A stretch of DNA of 20,000 nt from an uncultured virus (IMG/VR IMGVR_UViG_3300025128_000022) (Duplodnaviria; Heunggongvirae; Uroviricota; Caudoviricetes), in IMG/VR virus record IMGVR_UViG_3300025128_000022; one strand, given 5' to 3'. Below the pieces are notes generated by a model that was not told the DNA's origin, searched no databases, and saw only the letters and a list, made by a program, of their open reading frames with translations. Both the position numbers and the translations under genes were made by a program. Of the stretch, positions 1 through 8,343 are shown in pieces (the stretch's first letter is position 1; the number at the start of each line of letters is the position of its first letter).

Positions 1-153
1 CCAATGTCCGTTGATGAGTTTCTTTTCAACATCTCCCCAATGATTCTTTACCTTGTCAGACAGGTGTCTGTTAAGATGAGTTCGGAGCTGTCGATTCTGC
101 TCCTTTTCATTTAGATATAGTTGAAATATCTTTTGGTCTTTTTTTATCGCCAT
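1..153 (-). CDS. Hypothetical protein, 5' part only (MAIKKDQKIFQLYLNEKEQNRQLRTHL...), runs off the window
   Basis: Manual translation: ATG at 153 after an A-rich leader, open to position 1; overlaps the end of 107..304. Confidence 0.6.
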   Translation of the reverse strand, partial: MAIKKDQKIFQLYLNEKEQNRQLRTHLNRHLSDKVKNHWGDVEKKLINGHW

Positions 154-304
154 TTTTATTTAATTTTTTATGGTCAACAAAACGCTTTCTGTGATTCACC
201 TTTCCACTATATTTAAAGTAATGGTTTAGGTCAATCACATTGCGTTGTTGCACCTTGTTTGTCTCCTGTTGTAAACGGAGAAATTTAATTATATGTTTGG
301 TCAT
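107..304 (-). CDS. Hypothetical basic protein, 65 aa
   Basis: ORF track; ATGA overlap with the upstream 301..387 ORF. Confidence 0.55.
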   Translation of the reverse strand: MTKHIIKFLRLQQETNKVQQRNVIDLNHYFKYSGKVNHRKRFVDHKKLNKNGDKKRPKDISTISK

Positions 305-387
305 AGGTTACTACGAATCCAAAGGTATATCAAACACAATATTGCACCGATGAATGATACAAAGGTAGCAATATATTTGTCTCTCAT
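301..387 (-). CDS. Small membrane peptide, 28 aa (MRDKYIATFVSFIGAILCLIYLWIRSNL)
   Basis: Manual translation; one hydrophobic helix; fills the gap between 392..604 and 107..304. Confidence 0.55.
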   Translation of the reverse strand: MRDKYIATFVSFIGAILCLIYLWIRSNL

Positions 388-391
388 TTTA

Positions 392-604
392 TTACTCATA
401 ATTTATTTTTATTTTAAATCGGTCAATCAGCATCAGCTCTATCTCATCATACTTTTCGTTAAAAAAATCTTGTGCATGTTCTGTATAGCTAAAGCAATCA
501 GACTCTTTATCATGCACCCAAGTTGCTTCACCAAATCTTTCAGTAGTAATTAGACAAGCAACCTCGCATACCACTTCCTTAAATACTTCGTTAGATATTC
601 CCAT
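392..604 (-). CDS. Hypothetical acidic phage protein, 70 aa
   Basis: ORF track; AACTATG start context; tight packing. Confidence 0.75.
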   Translation of the reverse strand: MGISNEVFKEVVCEVACLITTERFGEATWVHDKESDCFSYTEHAQDFFNEKYDEIELMLIDRFKIKINYE

Positions 605-606
605 AG

Positions 607-783
607 TTATTTTTTATAATGTTCTCTATATAAATCGGCTCTGTATGATATTTCACTACTACTTATTAATACATTAGTATCGTTATTTACTTCTATATAG
701 ACACTCGTTTTGTCGGTGTCTGCCCACGCTACTATATCGTTCATTTCAAACCATCTAATAGCATCTTTTGTTTCCTCTATCAT
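607..783 (-). CDS. Hypothetical protein, 58 aa (MIEETKDAIRWFEMNDIVAWADTDK...)
   Basis: Manual translation; AACTATG start; stop 2 nt before the next ATG. Confidence 0.7.
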   Translation of the reverse strand: MIEETKDAIRWFEMNDIVAWADTDKTSVYIEVNNDTNVLISSSEISYRADLYREHYKK

Positions 784-789
784 AGTTAT

Positions 790-957
790 TTATTTATTTC
801 CTAATACTTTATCAATTACTCTTTCAGCATCTTCACACCCCTCCACCATTTTACTATCAGCATAATCAAAGAGCGTGTCGTTATGGTCTTCAAGCAACGC
901 CACTTTTGTTTGCAACGCTCTTACTTGTTCGTGTAAAAAATCTATTGTTTCTTGCAT
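790..957 (-). CDS. Hypothetical coiled-coil protein, 55 aa (MQETIDFLHEQVRALQTKVALLEDH...)
   Basis: Manual translation; heptad pattern; tight packing. Confidence 0.7.
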   Translation of the reverse strand: MQETIDFLHEQVRALQTKVALLEDHNDTLFDYADSKMVEGCEDAERVIDKVLGNK

Positions 958-984
958 TTATATTTAATTTTAAATTAATAATAA

Positions 985-1095
985 TAGGCAGAGAGTAGGG
1001 CTACGTTAAACAACTGCGTGGGTTAGCTCTCTTTTAAAAGTTCCACTCCTTTACTTACCTAATTTTATTTGTAACCCTGTGTTACAGGTGTTACA
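985..1095 (-). ncRNA. Candidate structured intergenic RNA of unknown class
   Basis: Hairpin UGUAAC(A)CCUG/CAGGGUUACA after the 1096 stop, then nested UAGGUA/UGCCUA and GAGAG/CUCUC stems; strand ambiguous. Confidence 0.35.
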
Positions 1096-1452
1096 TTAAT
1101 CAATCAGTTCTATATCAGAGATTTCAATCTCATCTTCCTCGCTATCCTCATCTACTAGCCAAGCCGGAAGAGTATCTCTCTCTTCAAAGATATTGTCTAA
1201 TGTGTAGCTGATTTCATTGTGGTCAATGAGTTCTTGAATAAATACATTCCCCCAATACTTAAGGTCATCATAATCGGAGAACATCCACTCTGCAAACCTT
1301 TTGCGAGTAATTGTGTATCTCTTTTTTGAATGTGATTTTGTTACATGCTCTTCTACTTTCTTTAAGTAGTCGTTCCAAGTATAAGGGATGTCTCCCAATA
1401 ATTCTCTGTGTCTCTTTTTTTGCTCTAGACCGAGCCACCTTTTTTCTCTCAT
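1096..1452 (-). CDS. Hypothetical protein with acidic C-terminus, 118 aa
   Basis: ORF track; ATGA overlap with 1449..1706. Confidence 0.8.
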   Translation of the reverse strand: MREKRWLGLEQKKRHRELLGDIPYTWNDYLKKVEEHVTKSHSKKRYTITRKRFAEWMFSDYDDLKYWGNVFIQELIDHNEISYTLDNIFEERDTLPAWLVDEDSEEDEIEISDIELID

Positions 1453-1706
1453 AATTTTCTTGATTTTAGTTTATAATTATCTTCAGCTACGTCTTTAAGA
1501 ACTCCCCATATATGTTCTATTGTACAGGGATGTTCCATTACCTCAACAAGTAACTCCATAGCTGTATCTGAATCCGTATCATACAATTCTTGTACGTCAA
1601 ATACATTCCATAAGTTAGCTGTTTGGTAGCCGTTTCTTTCAAGGATTACTTTAGCATCGTGTATCCTCTCGTAGCTAGATTCATACTTTTTAAAAGTGTG
1701 TTCCAT
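1449..1706 (-). CDS. Hypothetical phage protein, 85 aa
   Basis: ORF track; AACTATG start. Confidence 0.8.
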   Translation of the reverse strand: MEHTFKKYESSYERIHDAKVILERNGYQTANLWNVFDVQELYDTDSDTAMELLVEVMEHPCTIEHIWGVLKDVAEDNYKLKSRKL

Positions 1707-1716
1707 AGTTTTTGAT

Positions 1717-2268
1717 TTAGTTATTAATTACTCTTACTCTTTTCGCATTCCCCTCGCCTTGTTCAATAGAAAAGATATCGCCATATACTTCTAACGTCTT
1801 ATCCAATACATCAAAAGCTCGATATACTTTTATGATTGTCGACTTCTCTTCAATCCATTCTTTTTCTTCACCATTACGCACCCTAATCGTTTGGAGGTGT
1901 GCAGTTATGACTCCGGCATCTTCAACATCCTCACCACTAAATCTTATCTTACCTTTAAGATAAATTCCTTTAGGTTGGAGAAAGTCAGAGACTATAAACT
2001 TAAGCCAATTAACATATTGATAAAACTTTTCAGCTCCGTTCCACGCTAAACAATGAATGTCGGTTATGCCGTGTTCAACATCGTCAATGATTTCCCATTT
2101 ATTATATATTGATGGAGCTTTCTCTAGACCTCCTCGATAGTCGCCGGAGTATTCACCTGTGGTGTCGTGCCTGTCGTTTAGCCAAACTTGATTATACTCA
2201 TCAAGTTCATCTTGTGTTAACCTTCTTGATAATGCCATCAGTCCGGTAAAATTGGTTGTGTAACCCAT
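1717..2268 (-). CDS. Phage hypothetical protein, 183 aa (MGYTTNFTG...WNGAEKFYQYVNWL...GED)
   Basis: ORF track; AACATTATG start; motif pattern recalled from uncharacterised phage proteins. Confidence 0.85.
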   Translation of the reverse strand: MGYTTNFTGLMALSRRLTQDELDEYNQVWLNDRHDTTGEYSGDYRGGLEKAPSIYNKWEIIDDVEHGITDIHCLAWNGAEKFYQYVNWLKFIVSDFLQPKGIYLKGKIRFSGEDVEDAGVITAHLQTIRVRNGEEKEWIEEKSTIIKVYRAFDVLDKTLEVYGDIFSIEQGEGNAKRVRVINN

Positions 2269-2300
2269 AATGTTTAATATTTAATTATAATTTAATTTAG

Positions 2301-2329
2301 TGAACACTTTGAAATCTTGTTCAGGATTT
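2301..2329 (-). ncRNA. H-type pseudoknot motif, copy A
   Basis: AAAUC-CUGAACAA-GAUUU-CAAAG-UGUUCA; loop UGAACA pairs with the downstream UGUUCA. Confidence 0.7.
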
Positions 2330-2332
2330 TAG

Positions 2333-2451
2333 AAAGCAGACGAGGAATCGAACCTCTATATTAATAACCTAACGTCTTGTGTCAAATTGATAAGGGAGTT
2401 ATGAGTCTCCTTATCTAAAACCACTTCCGAGCACCTTGCTATCATCTGCTT
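2333..2451 (-). ncRNA. tRNA-like RNA (about 118 nt) with an expanded interior
   Basis: Acceptor-like stem AAGCAGA/UCUGCUU; T-arm GAGG-UUCGAUU-CCUC; D-like AGC-AAGGU-GCU; internal hairpin with loop ACUCAUAA; no encoded CCA. Confidence 0.6.
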
Positions 2452-2459
2452 AACATTTG

Positions 2460-2491
2460 CAATAATACGAATTAATAAATTAATAAACAAA
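2460..2491 (-). promoter_or_regulatory. Bacteroidetes-type sigma70 promoter (-33/-7)
   Basis: TTTG-N20-TATTATTG (one mismatch to TAnnTTTG), 8 nt upstream of the tRNA-like RNA. Confidence 0.65.
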
Positions 2492-2509
2492 TTTTAGACG
2501 AACTTTTTT

Positions 2510-3223
2510 TTATTGCTCCGGTTTATAATCCGGATTTGGAGCGTTGTCAGTCGTCAAAACTTGTAGCATAATGGCATCCACAAATTGCTGTAAGATGTGT
2601 CCATACTTCTCATCAAAGCTATGGTCTTCTCTCCAATTATTTAGCCACCTTTTAAATTCTCGTAGCATAATTGTATTGGTCATAAATCTATCCATCCAAT
2701 TAAGCATATCTTGATAGTAACGAGTTACTATATACTCCTCGTGAATGGTGCAGTTGCCACCACAATAGGAGCAGTCTTCAGCTATCTCCTCAATCTCGCC
2801 ATCGTCATCTTCCTCTTCGTAATACTCCCAACCACTACCACCACACTCACAACAATCCTGAAATACTTCCTCGATGACATTGCAATTGCCATTATTATAA
2901 TAGTCGTAGTAGAATCTACTAGCAATACGAATCAGCTCTCCATTAATGGTTTCGGCTTCAGCAGATTTTGGTACTAGTTTTTTATAAAGCTCATCATACT
3001 CTTTTTGATAAGCACCCTCATTGTTCCAATAGGTTTTTCCTAAAGGTGTTGATTTGCCGTGATGTTCAGCTGTCTTTTCCATCCATTTGCACCAATCGGC
3101 TAAAGTTTGTCGAGCATCAATTTTGCTCATACCGAATCTTTTGATTAGGTAGGGTGTCGCACCGAACATATTCGTCTCGCCGGACATCTGCAATTCGCAG
3201 AGATAATTAAAATGTGTGTTCAT
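2510..3223 (-). CDS. Multi-domain phage protein with an inserted DnaJ-type zinc finger, 237 aa
   Basis: CECGGSG and CSYCGGNC motifs flank an acidic loop; N-terminal SGETNMFGATPYL module; AACATTATG start. Confidence 0.85.
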   Translation of the reverse strand: MNTHFNYLCELQMSGETNMFGATPYLIKRFGMSKIDARQTLADWCKWMEKTAEHHGKSTPLGKTYWNNEGAYQKEYDELYKKLVPKSAEAETINGELIRIASRFYYDYYNNGNCNVIEEVFQDCCECGGSGWEYYEEEDDDGEIEEIAEDCSYCGGNCTIHEEYIVTRYYQDMLNWMDRFMTNTIMLREFKRWLNNWREDHSFDEKYGHILQQFVDAIMLQVLTTDNAPNPDYKPEQ

Positions 3224-3248
3224 AATGTTTACATTTTTATTTAATAAA

Positions 3249-3299
3249 TCCGTTTCATCCTTTCGGAATCATCAGGTGTGATACACATCACACTACGGA
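3249..3299 (-). ncRNA. Type III hammerhead ribozyme 1 (GUA site, cleavage between 3294 and 3293)
   Basis: UCCGUA^GUGUGA-UGUGUA-UCACAC-CUGAUGA-UUCC-GAAA-GGAU-GAAACGGA. Confidence 0.85.
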
Positions 3300-3322
3300 G
3301 GGGTAATGAACCCCCCTGTGTA

Positions 3323-3565
3323 TTAACTCACTCTCTCATATTCGTCAAGCCACTCATTAATGTCGTCTTCGTCTAACCAATAGTTAGTAAATTCGTTACC
3401 TTCTAAAATCAATTCTTTGGCTATGTCCATCATCCCATATTTATCATAGAATAATTCTGAATCAGGGTCTTCAATTTCTGTCTGACCTATTTCGTGTAGC
3501 CAACCTATTTCATAACCATCATTGGTTGGTAGGTAGTCAAACACATAGTGTTTAAGTTTTTTCAT
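3323..3565 (-). CDS. Highly acidic hypothetical protein, 80 aa
   Basis: ORF track; AACATTATG start; D/E-rich. Confidence 0.85.
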   Translation of the reverse strand: MKKLKHYVFDYLPTNDGYEIGWLHEIGQTEIEDPDSELFYDKYGMMDIAKELILEGNEFTNYWLDEDDINEWLDEYERVS

Positions 3566-3589
3566 AATGTTATTATTATATTATTAAAT

Positions 3590-3638
3590 CTGTTTCATCT
3601 TTTTAGAATCATCAGCGATAGCACACACTATCGAACAG
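3590..3638 (-). ncRNA. Type III hammerhead ribozyme 2 (GUU site, cleavage between 3634 and 3633)
   Basis: CUGUU^CGAUAG-UGUGUG-CUAUCG-CUGAUGA-UUCU-AAAA-AGAU-GAAACAG. Confidence 0.85.
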
Positions 3639-3665
3639 GAGCAGTTTTAAATCGTACTCAGGATT
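3639..3665 (-). ncRNA. H-type pseudoknot motif, copy B, abutting hammerhead 2
   Basis: AAUC-CUGAGUAC-GAUU-UAAAAC-UGCUC; loop GAGUA pairs with UGCUC. Confidence 0.7.
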
Positions 3666-3677
3666 GTCTGACTGCGT

Positions 3678-4085
3678 CTACTCTATGCAGTATCCGTCAT
3701 CATCGACCTTAATCTCGTGGCTGTCAGAGTGTCCGTTGACTAGCTCTGCGAGGGTTTCATTGTCGATATCATCAATCATATCATCGGTTAAAATATCGGA
3801 TGAGATAGTGGTATTAAAAAGCATACCATCCTCAAACATACTTTGAACCTCTGACATCATCTCATATTCATCGGTGAACAGCTCATCGCAAGGGTAATAA
3901 GCTCCCTTATCTGCGTCTCTTCTGTCGGTGATTATGTAGATGTCAAATCCATCTTTTGAGGTTTCCAAAAGGATGTGAATCTCTGCTCCTGATTCATAAG
4001 GGGTTTCGATTACACTTCCAAATACATCTGTTAGGATGGACTCGATACCCATCTCTCTTAATTCAGTTATTGTTAATTTCTCCAT
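3678..4085 (-). CDS. Highly acidic hypothetical protein, 135 aa
   Basis: ORF track; strong D/E excess. Confidence 0.85.
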   Translation of the reverse strand: MEKLTITELREMGIESILTDVFGSVIETPYESGAEIHILLETSKDGFDIYIITDRRDADKGAYYPCDELFTDEYEMMSEVQSMFEDGMLFNTTISSDILTDDMIDDIDNETLAELVNGHSDSHEIKVDDDGYCIE

Positions 4086-4086
4086 T

Positions 4087-4320
4087 TTAGTTTTTGTTTA
4101 AGTTAGACATTCTTTCTTTGTGTTCTGCGTACAATAGGGACACTATAAGGAACGAACAAAATCCGTATAGACATACACAACCCAACCACACAATAACGCC
4201 GGTAAACGAGCCAATATCGGTTTTTAGGATGTGAATGAATAGACTCCCACATAAAGCTATTATCGGCAAACAAACTAATGCATAGATAATAGACTCTGAA
4301 TAAATTAAAACTTTTTTCAT
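4087..4320 (-). CDS. Small membrane protein with two predicted TM helices, 77 aa
   Basis: Two hydrophobic segments; AACATTATG start. Confidence 0.8.
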   Translation of the reverse strand: MKKVLIYSESIIYALVCLPIIALCGSLFIHILKTDIGSFTGVIVWLGCVCLYGFCSFLIVSLLYAEHKERMSNLNKN

Positions 4321-4346
4321 AATGTTATAAAGTTAAATTAATATTT

Positions 4347-4395
4347 CTGTTTCGTTCTTTTGAACTCATCAGGCAAGGCACACACCTTGCGACAG
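4347..4395 (-). ncRNA. Type III hammerhead ribozyme 3, fully canonical (GUC site, cleavage between 4391 and 4390)
   Basis: CUGUC^GCAAGG-UGUGUG-CCUUGC-CUGAUGA-GUUC-AAAA-GAAC-GAAACAG. Confidence 0.95.
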
Positions 4396-4418
4396 GGGAG
4401 CGGTCAGCTCCCTGTGGT

Positions 4419-4667
4419 CTACTTATCTTCAAGCGTTACGACTGCATCCGGCTTTGATTTTGTCAGAACCTTGTGCATCTTGTTGAAGGTGTTCAGTTTT
4501 GAAACTACTTTCATCAATGCTCTAAACTGATTGGTATTCAGGTCTAATTGCCCAAGCTCGATGGTCTTTAGTTGCGTAATCGTGTTGTCTAATTCATCAG
4601 CGTTGAACTCAACCTGTACCGGCTCACTATACTTGTAGCTGTTAAAATACTTGTCATTCGTTTTCAT
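4419..4667 (-). CDS. Hypothetical protein, 82 aa
   Basis: ORF track; AACATTATG start. Confidence 0.8.
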   Translation of the reverse strand: MKTNDKYFNSYKYSEPVQVEFNADELDNTITQLKTIELGQLDLNTNQFRALMKVVSKLNTFNKMHKVLTKSKPDAVVTLEDK

Positions 4668-4696
4668 AATGTTTGTTGTTTAAGTTAGTAATATTT

Positions 4697-4921
4697 TTAT
4701 CTTTCTTCGTACTCTTTAAAATCTATGCCAATAGATTCGCATAAAAATTTCTCTTCAAACCAAAAAAGGTCGTTTATTTCGCTCTCGGTTGGTGGCTTTT
4801 CGTGATATAAATCCTCAATCGCAAATTGAATTTCTTTTAATTCATTATAAGTAAATTCGTGTTGCTTTGCTCCGCTCCAAAATTTAAAGCTCGTTAAATC
4901 TAAATCTTTAGTGTAATACAT
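4697..4921 (-). CDS. Phage hypothetical protein, 74 aa (MYYTKDLDLTSFKFWSGAK...INDLFWFE); start revised from 4978
   Basis: AACATTATG at 4921; the ORF-track N-terminal extension lies inside hammerhead 4. Confidence 0.85.
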   Translation of the reverse strand: MYYTKDLDLTSFKFWSGAKQHEFTYNELKEIQFAIEDLYHEKPPTESEINDLFWFEEKFLCESIGIDFKEYEER

Positions 4922-4944
4922 AATGTTTGTTATTAAATTTATAA

Positions 4945-4993
4945 TCTGTTTCTGCTTTCGCTTCTTCAGGTAAGGCACACACCTTACGACAGA
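4945..4993 (-). ncRNA. Type III hammerhead ribozyme 4, short stem II variant (GUC site, cleavage between 4988 and 4987)
   Basis: UCUGUC^GUAAGG-UGUGUG-CCUUAC-CUGAAGA-AGC-GAAA-GCA-GAAACAGA. Confidence 0.82.
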
Positions 4994-5023
4994 GAACCTT
5001 TTTATCTCGACTTGTTCAGGTCG
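4994..5023 (-). ncRNA. H-type pseudoknot motif, copy C, abutting hammerhead 4
   Basis: CGAC-CUGAACAA-GUCG-AGAUAAAAAG-GUUC; loop GAAC pairs with GUUC. Confidence 0.7.
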
Positions 5024-5029
5024 GTTTGG

Positions 5030-5092
5030 TTATACTAAAACAATCTCAAACTCTTGAGAAATGTCTTGTATTGCTATATCATATGCATTCAT
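5030..5092 (-). CDS. Possible 20-aa micropeptide (MNAYDIAIQDISQEFEIVLV)
   Basis: Manual translation; AAATTATG start; stop 6 nt before pseudoknot C. Confidence 0.4.
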   Translation of the reverse strand: MNAYDIAIQDISQEFEIVLV

Positions 5093-5113
5093 AATTTTTG
5101 GTTTTATTGGTTA

Positions 5114-5698
5114 TTAAATTCTTTCGATTAATTCTTCTTGCTCTTCGTACTCATAAAGACAATGATTTATAATCATATCATCACACTTGAAGAGCTTCGC
5201 ATCTGTGTAACCTCCTCTGACGTCAGCTCCGTTGTGTATCTGTAACAACAAGTAAGATTCGCCGTTAATCTCTAGCCATCCACCTTGAAGAGTTTGAGAG
5301 AGGTCACTCTCTGCGTTGTAGGTGTTGAAGGTTCTGCCCTCAACGACTTCGTTGCCCTCTTTTAAATCGTCCCACGCTTCGAGAGATACTCCCCACGCTT
5401 CAGAGTCGCCGTTCCAATCTGTTGCACCTGATTGAATTTCATTAAAGTTGTTGCAGATATAATCTAGCTCTAGAGCTGAATCTTCACCGGCTAAAAAATG
5501 GAAGACTGATACTTCTCTCTGTATCCAATCAGATGAATCTTTTTCTATGGTTTCAGGTTGGTCATTCTCGAAATCTGTCAGACTGCGTTTTTGGTTTCTC
5601 TGCCAATGTCTCCCGTCAGTCATACCGGAATCTAGCATGTGTTTACCTGTTGACTCTGTCAACATTTCGTAAATTAATTGTTTTAAATCTGTGTTCAT
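5114..5698 (-). CDS. Acidic phage protein, 194 aa, first gene of the leftward operon
   Basis: ORF track; motifs MLDSG..GRHWQRNQ, NTYN and QIHNGADVRGGYTD recalled from uncharacterised phage proteins. Confidence 0.88.
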   Translation of the reverse strand: MNTDLKQLIYEMLTESTGKHMLDSGMTDGRHWQRNQKRSLTDFENDQPETIEKDSSDWIQREVSVFHFLAGEDSALELDYICNNFNEIQSGATDWNGDSEAWGVSLEAWDDLKEGNEVVEGRTFNTYNAESDLSQTLQGGWLEINGESYLLLQIHNGADVRGGYTDAKLFKCDDMIINHCLYEYEEQEELIERI

Positions 5699-5739
5699 TT
5701 TAGTAAAATTTAAGTGCCTTTCGGCTGTTAATAATACAG

Positions 5740-5747
5740 CAAAGATA
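5740..5747 (-). promoter_or_regulatory. Bacteroidetes-type -7 box (TATCTTTG) for the leftward operon
   Basis: Exact TAnnTTTG 41 nt upstream of ATG 5698; GCC-GAAA-GGC hairpin in the leader (5716-5725); no clear -33 TTTG. Confidence 0.6.
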
Positions 5748-6193
5748 TAAACTTTTTTTTAATTCTCGTATAATTTTAGTTTTATTTTCGTTTAATTTTA
5801 TTTACTTTATGTTAATAACTATGTAAAGCGTTGATAATGAGCAAGTTATATGTTGATAATTCACGCAGATTTATTTAATCTTTTTTGATTGGGTTCGGTT
5901 GCTCTCTTTATTCTTTGTCTATCTGTTACAAATAATAAATAAATGGGGGAAGGTATGGAGGGAATCGAGGGGGTTGTGTGGTGTGGTATAAGGGAAGGAG
6001 GGGAGGAGGTCAACAGGAGGACAGGACACCGGACAAATTTTGTAAAAAATCCGAAAGAAAAAAACAAAATCAATAAGGGGGGTCAAAAATAAATTTGACT
6101 TTTTTTTTGCGGCACACAAACGCATAACGGGGGGGAGTCTAAACAGTACATATAACTAAATAAAATTTTTGTATCTTTACAAAAAAAATTATC

Positions 6194-6430
6194 ATGGGCA
6201 AACCTTATAAACAATTACAAAGAGATGGAAAGATTTCAAACTTTGTAGACGGTCTGTATATGCAGAACGGAAGAGAAAAGAATGCAAGACCGGATGGAAT
6301 GACAGGTATTGCTCAAGCTGCAATGTATAGACAGCAAATGAAAAAGCAATATAAAATAGATTGTATCGCTGATGGAATAGAGAGGGCTAAAATGAGAATG
6401 GATGGCGATAAAGATATATATGAGTTTTAG
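6194..6430 (+). CDS. Hypothetical phage protein, 78 aa
   Basis: ORF track; TATCTTTA box upstream at about 6172; terminator downstream. Confidence 0.8.
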   Translation: MGKPYKQLQRDGKISNFVDGLYMQNGREKNARPDGMTGIAQAAMYRQQMKKQYKIDCIADGIERAKMRMDGDKDIYEF

Positions 6431-6456
6431 TTGAAGATGAGTATGTGTGTTGATTG

Positions 6457-6487
6457 AAAGGGGGATTCTTAGGAGTCCCTTTTTTTT
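6457..6487 (+). terminator. Rho-independent terminator
   Basis: GGGAUUC-UUAG-GAGUCCC hairpin followed by a T8 run. Confidence 0.85.
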
Positions 6488-6506
6488 ATGTCGTTATTTA
6501 ACAAAG

Positions 6507-6729: not shown

Positions 6730-8343
6730 ATGAATCCAATTAAAATGCCATCCGGCTTTAATCCAAAGGAATTATCTTTTGGAACAGAGGGGAGAAATAA
6801 ACTAATCTCCGGTATCACCCAAATCGCAAATGCAGTAAAGAGCACTCTAGGACCTAGAGGGAATACAGTATTGATAGAGTCTCAATATGTAACAGGAGGA
6901 TTAACTGTAACTAAAGACGGAGTAACTGTAGCGAAAGCCGTTGACTTATTAGACCCTGTAGAGAATCTAGCGGTGCGTATGATGAAACAAGCTGCAGACA
7001 ATACAGCATCCTCAGCCGGAGACGGAACAACAACAGCTATCGTATTGACAGAAGAGTTAGTAAAGCAAGGTAACGAGTTAATGGATGAAACCACAAATCG
7101 AGCTGAAGTTCTAAGAGAGATTGTGCGTGAAACCGACAACGTTATTGGAAATTTAAAAAAGGCATCTAAAAAGATTACGAGTAAAAGATTAAAAGATGTA
7201 GCTATTATCTCAGCTAATAATGATAAGACAATAGGTAAAGTAATAGCGGATACATATAAGAAAGTAGGAAAGAACGGAATCGTTACTGTAGAAAAGTCAG
7301 AGTCGAGTGAAACATATAGCGAGACGACTAATGGAATTAAAATAGATAGAGGATGGACTTCACCTTTATTCGTTAACAATCAAAAGAAAGATGAAAGTAT
7401 ATTAGAAAATGTGCATGTGCTTGTAAGCGATGCAGAGATTACTAATGTATTAGCGATTGAAGGAATATTAAAACCAATCATTAATGAACAAAAGAAATTA
7501 TTAATTATTGCACCTATGTCTGTTAATGTAGTAAACACTCTTGCAGCTAATGTTGTAAAGAATGGATTACAGCTTTGCGTAATAGGTCCTCCATCATTTG
7601 GATATAAACAACACGAGCTTATGCAAGATATAGCAGTTTCGGTTGGTGCTAAATACTTTTCAGAAAAAACAGGAGATGACTTATCCTTAATTACATTTGC
7701 TGATTTAGGTCATGCAGATAAATGTATAATAGGACAAGAGTCTTCTATATTAATAAAATCATCTACCGTACAAACTGATGTAAGTGAAAGAGTAAATCAA
7801 TTATGGGAAGCTCATAAGATTACAACAAAGAAAGAAGATAAAGAGTTTATACTATCACGCATTGCATCACTCAGCGGTGGTATTGGTGTAATATATGTAG
7901 GAGGGCAAACTGATATTGAGCAAAAAGAATTGTTCGATAGAGTAGATGATGCTGTATGTGCGGTGCGTTCTGCACTACAAGAAGGAATATTACCGGGAGG
8001 TGGAATAGCATTGTACGACATTGCAGCAGAACATAAACCTAATTCTGAAAAAAATTCCAAAAAAATTGCTGACGCAATTTTATATAATTCTCTCATTGCT
8101 CCATTACGTCAGATTTTAGAGAATGCAGGACTAGACCCTGAAGAACTATATTGTTGTAAAAAGGAACAAGGAAAAGGTTATGATGTTAAGAATGAAAAAT
8201 GGGGGAGCATGATTGATATGGGAATTATTGACCCAATGAAAGTAACTAAAAGTGCCTTACAAAATGCAGTTTCAGTTGCAGTAACAATTTTATCAACTAA
8301 CGCCATTATAACTATGGCGAGAACATATGAGGGTAAAAATTAA
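6730..8343 (+). CDS. groEL: Phage-encoded group I chaperonin GroEL (Cpn60), 537 aa
   Basis: TLGPRG, TKDGVTVAK, AGDGTTTA, EGILPGGG and GIIDP motifs; no C-terminal GGM tail. Confidence 0.97.
   Translation: MNPIKMPSGFNPKELSFGTEGRNKLISGITQIANAVKSTLGPRGNTVLIESQYVTGGLTVTKDGVTVAKAVDLLDPVENLAVRMMKQAADNTASSAGDGTTTAIVLTEELVKQGNELMDETTNRAEVLREIVRETDNVIGNLKKASKKITSKRLKDVAIISANNDKTIGKVIADTYKKVGKNGIVTVEKSESSETYSETTNGIKIDRGWTSPLFVNNQKKDESILENVHVLVSDAEITNVLAIEGILKPIINEQKKLLIIAPMSVNVVNTLAANVVKNGLQLCVIGPPSFGYKQHELMQDIAVSVGAKYFSEKTGDDLSLITFADLGHADKCIIGQESSILIKSSTVQTDVSERVNQLWEAHKITTKKEDKEFILSRIASLSGGIGVIYVGGQTDIEQKELFDRVDDAVCAVRSALQEGILPGGGIALYDIAAEHKPNSEKNSKKIADAILYNSLIAPLRQILENAGLDPEELYCCKKEQGKGYDVKNEKWGSMIDMGIIDPMKVTKSALQNAVSVAVTILSTNAIITMARTYEGKN

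Follow-up and report, generated by a model that had tools for sequence, protein, structure and literature searches.

Within a 20,000-nucleotide (nt) stretch of DNA from the uncultured Caudoviricetes virus IMGVR_UViG_3300025128_000022 (in its full length referred to as the window), four elements of 57-59 nt with the full anatomy of type III hammerhead ribozymes were identified on the minus strand. We consider it likely that all four are working ribozymes, each located within a repeated intergenic unit. Three of them carry U.U or A.A instead of G-C at the 10.1/11.1 pair of stem II. Such non-G-C pairs are heritable variants that are kept, or at least tolerated, by selection; as far as can be judged from the sequences, they probably retain activity, perhaps with a different rate or metal dependence. 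The four hammerheads (HH) are:

HH1, 3245-3303, minus strand: type III hammerhead, predicted cleavage 3294/3293; triplet GUA, core CUGAUGA, stem II U10.1.U11.1 plus UCC/GGA, loop II GAAA
HH2, 3585-3643, minus strand: type III hammerhead, predicted cleavage 3634/3633; triplet GUU, core CUGAUGA, stem II U10.1.U11.1 plus UCU/AGA, loop II AAAA
HH3, 4342-4400, minus strand: type III hammerhead, predicted cleavage 4391/4390; triplet GUC, core CUGAUGA, canonical G10.1-C11.1 plus UUC/GAA, loop II AAAA
HH4, 4941-4997, minus strand: type III hammerhead, predicted cleavage 4988/4987; triplet GUC, core CUGAAGA, stem II (AGCGAAAGCA) A.A plus GC/GC (2 base pairs, bp), loop II GAAA

In each copy, the 5' strand of an open stem III of 4-5 bp ends in G-U-H and is followed by stem I (7 bp, closed by GUGU), the CUGANGA core, stem II, which is short and also capped, and GAAAC. 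One structure, with stems I and II closed and stem III open, fits all four copies. All 13 core positions are present in each of them, with C3 U4 G5 A6 N7 G8 A9 and G12 A13 A14 intact, as are the A15.1-U16.1 pair and a non-G base at the cleavage site (H17), the triplets each being paired to GAAAC. Core position N7 is U in HH1, HH2 and HH3 and A in HH4; as position 7 is the variable core position, CUGAAGA in HH4 is not itself a departure from the consensus. G10.1-C11.1, or any standard pair beside the core, occurs in HH3 only. Between HH1 and HH2, the innermost stem II pair changes from C-G to U-A. Everything that the initial annotation had described for the four copies at 10.1/11.1, in stem II, the loops, the cores and the triplets is correct when read on the minus strand. 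The pattern CTGANGA-N6-30-GAAAC occurs four times in the window, always on the minus strand, against 0.23 expected, and none of 200 shuffles reached four. A covariance model built from the four copies did not reveal a fifth one in the window; beyond the four, the best match scored 10.6 bits.

The elements share with the Rfam family RF00008 (clan CL00010) the three-way junction with capped stems I and II and an open stem III, CUGANGA...GAAA, the A15.1-U16.1 pair and a GUH site. Unlike RF00008, three of the four copies are without G10.1-C11.1, and none of the four attains the gathering score of 48.5 bits, so that Rfam at gathering scores reported nothing in the window. They also have fixed features of their own, namely the 7-bp stem I with a GUGU loop, a stem II of four layers with an RAAA loop and a stem III of 4-5 bp. 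At relaxed thresholds, RF00008 listed HH3 (37.7 bits, E 4.9e-6) and HH1 (28.7 bits, E 0.0018), and HH2 and HH4 were absent from the list at E<=10. Among 20 related loci scanned at E<=1, six of ten G-C seed hammerheads were listed (30.4-45.4 bits) but none of ten with U.U, and none of the 20 seed copies reached the gathering score, the best scoring 45.4 bits. The suspicion that the variants would score poorly with standard models was thus borne out. The reason is likely that the alignments published in 2011 rejected matches with an N10.1-N11.1 mispair unless activity had been shown, as stated in the sections of that paper available to us (Perreault et al., 2011; PMC3088659).

Relatives were searched for by running the model of the four window copies on loci obtained by pattern scans, and all counts given for the resulting sets are among the matches listed. 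Two scans of viral contigs yielded at least 119 and at least 129 stretches, of which 80 and a further 62 new loci were examined, giving 34 and 101 matches, respectively. Including the four window copies, the viral set comprises 139 rows, which reduce to 113 unique and 107 parsed sequences. Left out of the viral table were L011 (a weak match), L029:2158 (long stem II; G-C, GUA), L124 (truncated; G-C, GUC), L168 and L179:1486 (both G-C, GUC) and L141:1494 (U.U, GUU); five gapped rows were left out of the genome set and six rows out of the metagenome set. The same pattern gave at least 128 stretches in bacterial and archaeal genomes, with 84 matches in the 80 loci examined, mostly in genomes of Patescibacteria (Saccharibacteria, Paceibacterota, Parcubacteria) assembled from metagenomes. 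A scan of metagenomes gave at least 131 stretches, with 83 matches in the 80 loci examined. Type III hammerheads with a GUGU loop I and an RAAA loop II therefore form a large family present in marine phage contigs, metagenomes and Patescibacteria genomes. Both loops are near-invariant in this family, but the search patterns required both; neighbouring copies that had not been picked by the pattern display some loop variation, e.g., GAGU, GUGC or GAUU. In the viral set, the members fall into the following classes, the HH4 and insertion types being under-sampled as the later scan patterns required a 12-nt stem II:

G-C: 45 of 107; base 17 is C in 44 and A in 1
U.U plus 3-4 bp: 40 of 107; base 17 is A in 33, U in 6 and C in 1
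A.A plus 3 bp: 4 of 107; base 17 is U in all 4
AGCGAAAGCA (HH4 type): 10 of 107; base 17 is C in all 10
One-base insertion before a G-C stem: 8 of 107; base 17 is C in all 8

A further variation concerns the core: an 8-nt version, CUGAAUGA, in which an additional base sits at position 7 or beside it, recurs across contigs with otherwise intact stems (L063:1993, L029:1152, L130:1859, L004:1848 and L029:2158). Five Patescibacteria genomes carry two to six copies each, in tight clusters, per genome of 0.7-0.9 Mb. On one Saccharibacteria contig (G002:C25:5020-7306, L480), five copies flank small ORFs (open reading frames) without Pfam matches. Genes for a class II aminoacyl-tRNA synthetase, a uridine kinase-CYTH protein and a TrmB regulator lie near the Saccharibacteria copies; as these neighbours are housekeeping-like, the setting is not obviously viral. 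In one viral contig (L035:2071-2103), a DUF805b RNA motif (RF02914, 42.7 bits; gathering score 35.6) is located about 530 nt downstream of a hammerhead of the family.

The variant pairs recur well beyond the window. The 44 distinct U.U members, which were retrieved with a model of the same structure, have 92.9% of their stem cells paired, with changes on both sides in 13 of 16 pairs. Their covariation score was 0.757, compared with 0.215 in shuffles (none of 500 reached 0.757) and at most 0.105 with slid partners. The three inner pairs of stem II are always paired in these members, with 6, 14 and 8 double changes. A generic scan for U.U without any requirement on loop I (CTGATGAT-N6-14-TGAAAC) gave 117 matches, of which two fold as type III hammerheads, both members of the GUGU/RAAA family; the scan says nothing about other families. 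A complete scan for the exact string CTGANGA-AGCGAAAGCA-GAAAC identified 84 viral loci. Forty-four of these parse as members of the GUGU/RAAA type III family (40 GUC, 4 GUU; 11 stem I hexamers), and a further 23 distinct loci, all with GUC, parse as type I hammerheads that are compact and share this stem II. In these type I hammerheads stem III is capped and 3-7 bp long, and two of the loci lie directly beside tRNA genes. Altogether, about 40 viral loci carry AGCGAAAGCA without a type III fold (within L483-L565, e.g., L499, L507, L552 and L564), and Rfam listed no hammerhead in the 20 of these non-type-III loci that were scanned.

Close relatives of the window also retain the variants. In L122, where the 237-amino-acid (aa) protein encoded next to HH1 is 76% identical, an HH4-type copy with the same stem II and an HH3-type copy are kept, the latter with a compensatory change from C-G to U-A in stem I. 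L121, where this protein is 99% identical, keeps HH1, which is identical apart from the first flanking base. Given the recurrence of U.U and A.A in diverged relatives, the covarying stems and the A.A copy kept in L122, random decay can be regarded as excluded for both pairs, and the initial annotation's proposal that they represent natural variants holds. As that annotation also suggested, a contact between loops I and II may rescue them and may lead to graded cleavage rates.

It might be argued that HH1, HH2 and HH4 are dead relics and that only HH3 works, as G10.1-C11.1 is described as second only to A15.1-U16.1 in conservation (Perreault et al., 2011; PMC3088659, in the part available to us) and HH2 and HH4 are not listed by Rfam. 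Against this, all four copies have an otherwise intact core, the stems of the U.U class covary, and over 60 distinct sequences drawn from three collections carry the variants; the A.A copy was retained in L122 despite the divergence of the neighbouring protein. We regard such decay of the three copies as highly improbable.

The position of the hammerheads relative to the surrounding genes is similarly fixed. From position 1 to 6400 of the window the genes run on the minus strand, and all four hammerheads sit between two minus-strand ORFs, with the next ATG 66-70 nt past the predicted cut. The ORFs of this leftward operon and the hairpins upstream of the cleavage sites are:

5114-5698, minus strand: ORF of 194 aa that opens the leftward operon, upstream of HH4; PHROG 11344, unknown function
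4697-4921, minus strand: ORF of 74 aa, ATG 66 nt after the HH4 cleavage site; PHROG 5149, unknown function
4419-4667, minus strand: ORF of 82 aa, stop codon 28 nt before the cleavage-site base of HH3
4392-4415, minus strand: G+C-rich hairpin of HH3 between the upstream stop codon and the cleavage site, -12.9 kcal/mol, z -2.78
4087-4320, minus strand: ORF of 77 aa, ATG 70 nt after the HH3 cleavage site
3678-4085, minus strand: ORF of 135 aa, ending before HH2
3323-3565, minus strand: ORF of 80 aa between HH2 and HH1, ATG 68 nt after the HH2 cleavage site
3295-3319, minus strand: G+C-rich hairpin of HH1 between the upstream stop codon and the cleavage site, -12.9 kcal/mol, z -1.74
2510-3223, minus strand: ORF of 237 aa, ATG 70 nt after the HH1 cleavage site; relatives in L121 and L122

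The same arrangement was observed across the viral set. An ORF start follows the cut in 105 of 107 members at a median distance of 69 nt (quartiles 66-73), and an ORF stop precedes it in 92 of 107 at a median of 39 nt. The 40 nt ending at the cleavage base have a median z of -3.4 relative to shuffles, with z < -1.64 in 69%, and for 67% the predicted energy is -10 kcal/mol or lower. The hairpin upstream of the cleavage site, which usually ends about 5 nt before the cut, is thus a feature of the whole family. In HH1 and HH3, its 3' arm takes in the 5' strand of stem III. Neither intrinsic terminators nor sigma-70 promoters were found beside the ribozymes on the minus strand between 2200 and 6700, the counts being at chance level.

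The repeated unit would accordingly consist of an ORF stop, a stable hairpin, the hammerhead, an A/U-rich leader of about 20 nt and the next ATG. During transcription of the leftward operon, each ribozyme would cut after its GUH triplet. The upstream piece would then carry, a few bases beyond the G+C-rich hairpin, a terminal 2',3'-cyclic phosphate, and the downstream piece would begin with a 5'-OH and the stem I hairpin, such that neighbouring cistrons may become separate mRNAs with protected ends. The family-wide unit supports, but does not prove, this reading, in which the upstream mRNA receives a 3' hairpin and the downstream mRNA a 5'-OH followed by the stem I hairpin. The anatomy, the conservation, the covarying stems and the fixed placement relative to the ORFs are what the sequences show; cleavage itself, the protection of the RNA ends and any difference in rate are what we infer.

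Several observations weigh against working ribozymes at all four junctions. A search for RNA runs containing the stretch listed none. None of the window copies attains the curated threshold of Rfam. HH1 and HH4 fold as hammerheads at minimum energy, whereas HH2 does so only in its centroid structure. In the minimum-energy folds of HH2 and HH3, CUG of the core pairs with CAG of the 3' strand of stem III and thereby replaces stem III, which represents a possible competing inactive fold according to these predictions. In addition, the fold energy of HH2 is unremarkable (z -0.57), and the upstream hairpin is clear for HH1 and HH3 only, being weak at HH2 and lacking at HH4. The U.U alignments lean towards the expected structure, since their rows were chosen by a model of that same structure. 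Finally, N7 of G10.1 is a known divalent-metal ligand, as described in the available part of PMC7151607, and U or A at this position could therefore lower the activity substantially.

The classes at 10.1/11.1 are associated with the cleavage-site base N17. In the viral set, counting one member per stem I cluster, the ratio of C17 to non-C17 was 22/1 for G-C and 1/17 for U.U (Fisher p = 2e-9), and in 16 of the 17 pairs of nearest G-C and U.U members N17 differs as well, always in one direction. A case in point is HH2 (GUU, U.U), whose closest relative among those sampled, L122:2921, is almost identical to it in stems I and III but carries GUC and G-C, with only 2 of 46 other positions differing. 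The new metagenome sequences gave a corresponding picture (35/7 for G-C, 2/16 for U.U; Fisher p = 1.8e-7), and A.A plus 3 bp occurred with U17 in five of five. These results would fit a scenario in which 10.1/11.1 is functionally coupled to N17 by epistasis and the classes set rates or metal needs for each gene junction. The general base of the hammerhead is G12. The 10.1-11.1 pair and the sheared A9.G12 pair belong to one short stem, as described in the available part of PMC11300833, which would also be in line with such coupling.

Other findings do not fit a functional coupling. The association was not reproduced in the genome sample, which consists mostly of Patescibacteria (44/24 for G-C, 3/5 for U.U; Fisher p = 0.25). 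Here, G-C members carry all three allowed bases at N17 (44 C, 9 A and 15 U; the U.U members 3 C, 2 A and 3 U). Tree-based independent contrasts yielded only two independent pairs on supported branches (p = 1), as the 46 remaining columns cannot resolve the tree. The members with A.A plus 3 bp share similar stem I starts and may, from this similarity, be a single lineage, and the sole Patescibacteria example has C17. Moreover, L133 is identical to L184:1494 save for a swapped stem II, with N17 unchanged, indicating that copies recombine and that classes can spread by descent. At the junction before the 237-aa gene, the window has U.U with GUA and L122 has G-C with GUC, which argues against tuning specific to a junction. 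Taken together, we regard such tuned alleles as rather unlikely.

Alternatively, a strong loop-loop contact may make 10.1/11.1 matter little, and U.U and A.A may have spread near-neutrally by ancestry and gene conversion. The share of U.U indeed varies widely, with 40 of 107 members in the viral set, 8 of 79 in the genome set and 18 of 65 among the new metagenome sequences (10-37% of the sampled members). The recombinant pair L133 and L184, the free choice of N17 among the G-C members of the genome sample and the different classes carried by related phages at the same gene junction would also agree with drift. However, only U.U and A.A recur in the samples, apart from a single C.A among the 79 genome sequences, and neutrality would predict other pairs and mispairs as well. 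Furthermore, the 10-nt AGCGAAAGCA occurs letter for letter in two hammerhead topologies, although this invariance is partly by construction since it was searched for as an exact string. Drift of this kind is possible but on balance doubtful.

The association of N17 with 10.1/11.1 is therefore a real pattern in the samples rich in marine phages, caused either by epistasis or by ancestry with copy-to-copy exchange, and a functional basis is unproven once relatedness is considered. A more far-reaching version, which we think improbable, would be that the pair beside the A9/G10.1 metal site and N17 evolve as a coupled unit, with alleles in the hairpin-ribozyme-leader unit setting the speed at which each junction is cut. 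In such a unit, G-C may go with C17, U.U with A17 or U17, and A.A with U17.

Part of what was found here has precedents. In the sections of the 2011 study available to us, a natural U10.1-U11.1 mismatch is reported, stem II is stated to be often only two base pairs long and a weak stem III is also described. Earlier mutagenesis is cited there according to which U-U is the best-tolerated mispair and allows more cleavage than any other. According to the same sections, multiple hammerheads flank single genes in prophages and phage operons, where they were proposed to process polycistronic RNA, and cleavage by such prophage clusters was shown both in vitro and in E. coli (Perreault et al., 2011; PMC3088659). 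The present elements share with those variants U10.1-U11.1, the 2-bp stem II, the weak stem III and the occurrence of several hammerheads flanking genes of a phage operon. They correspond to the clustered phage hammerheads of that study, with four copies within 1.75 kb of the minus strand, each between ORFs. The core claim is thus not new: the initial annotation rightly took the copies for natural variants missed by standard models, but overstated their novelty, as U.U and the 2-bp stem II have been known since 2011. In contrast to the published variants, as far as these sections describe them, U.U is here a major class of one family and an A.A class exists. Neither an association with N17 nor an upstream hairpin was found in the text passages of that paper (figures not covered), and no mention of the 10.1 pair, U-U or a mismatch was found in the accessible part of its supplements. 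In the open-access literature, we found only this study on U10.1/U11.1, no natural A.A at 10.1/11.1, no link of 10.1/11.1 to N17 and no report of the hairpin upstream of hammerheads. Another natural departure from the consensus is the intergenic hammerhead of phage Bcep176, for which the available part of the report describes an A6C core variant with altered metal preference (Naghdi et al., 2020; PMC7151607). Like that ribozyme, the elements described here are intergenic in a phage and depart naturally from the consensus; unlike it, the change does not affect core position 6 but the pair adjoining the A9/G10.1 metal site, and is known from sequence alone. Compared to the known kind, the additions are modest and consist of the A.A module in two topologies, the hairpin-ribozyme-leader unit and the N17 association.

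The remainder of the window identifies the contig as that of a phage, with virion- and tail-like proteins and a GroEL-like protein encoded on the plus strand. Only 6% of positions 2400-6400 matched known phages by blastn, namely Polaribacter phages. Further observations in the neighbourhood of the operon are:

6730-8343, plus strand: phage-encoded GroEL-like chaperonin, 537 aa (PHROG 5725, E 1.2e-131), whose gene opens a rightward block opposite the ribozyme operon
5720-6500, minus strand: long non-coding stretch upstream of the leftward operon, containing low-complexity runs rich in C (about 5950-6030) as well as A/T-rich repeats; it presumably represents the divergent promoter region
2335-2450, minus strand: tRNA-like stretch of 116 nt in the spacer after the 237-aa ORF, with a 7-bp acceptor-like stem, the T-loop motif GGTTCGATTCC and the anticodon-like loop CUCAUAA

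The last of these was rejected as a tRNA, as ARAGORN and Rfam were negative, the fold had a z of -1.07 and the stretch is too long for a normal tRNA.

Since standard annotation misses the family, ribozyme-punctuated operons in marine phages and Patescibacteria are under-counted, and a dedicated model would recover the members that have been missed. The family represents a natural series of variants beside a catalytic metal site, comprising G-C, U.U, A.A and insertions, all of them represented by numerous diverged members. This series provides material for asking how much the 'most conserved' pair matters when tertiary contacts are given, and whether it interacts with N17; the coupling of the two, if true, would reveal a functional connection so far overlooked in a ribozyme that is among the best studied. 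The repeated layout of hairpin, ribozyme and leader resembles engineered ribozyme insulators and suggests how phages uncouple neighbouring genes.

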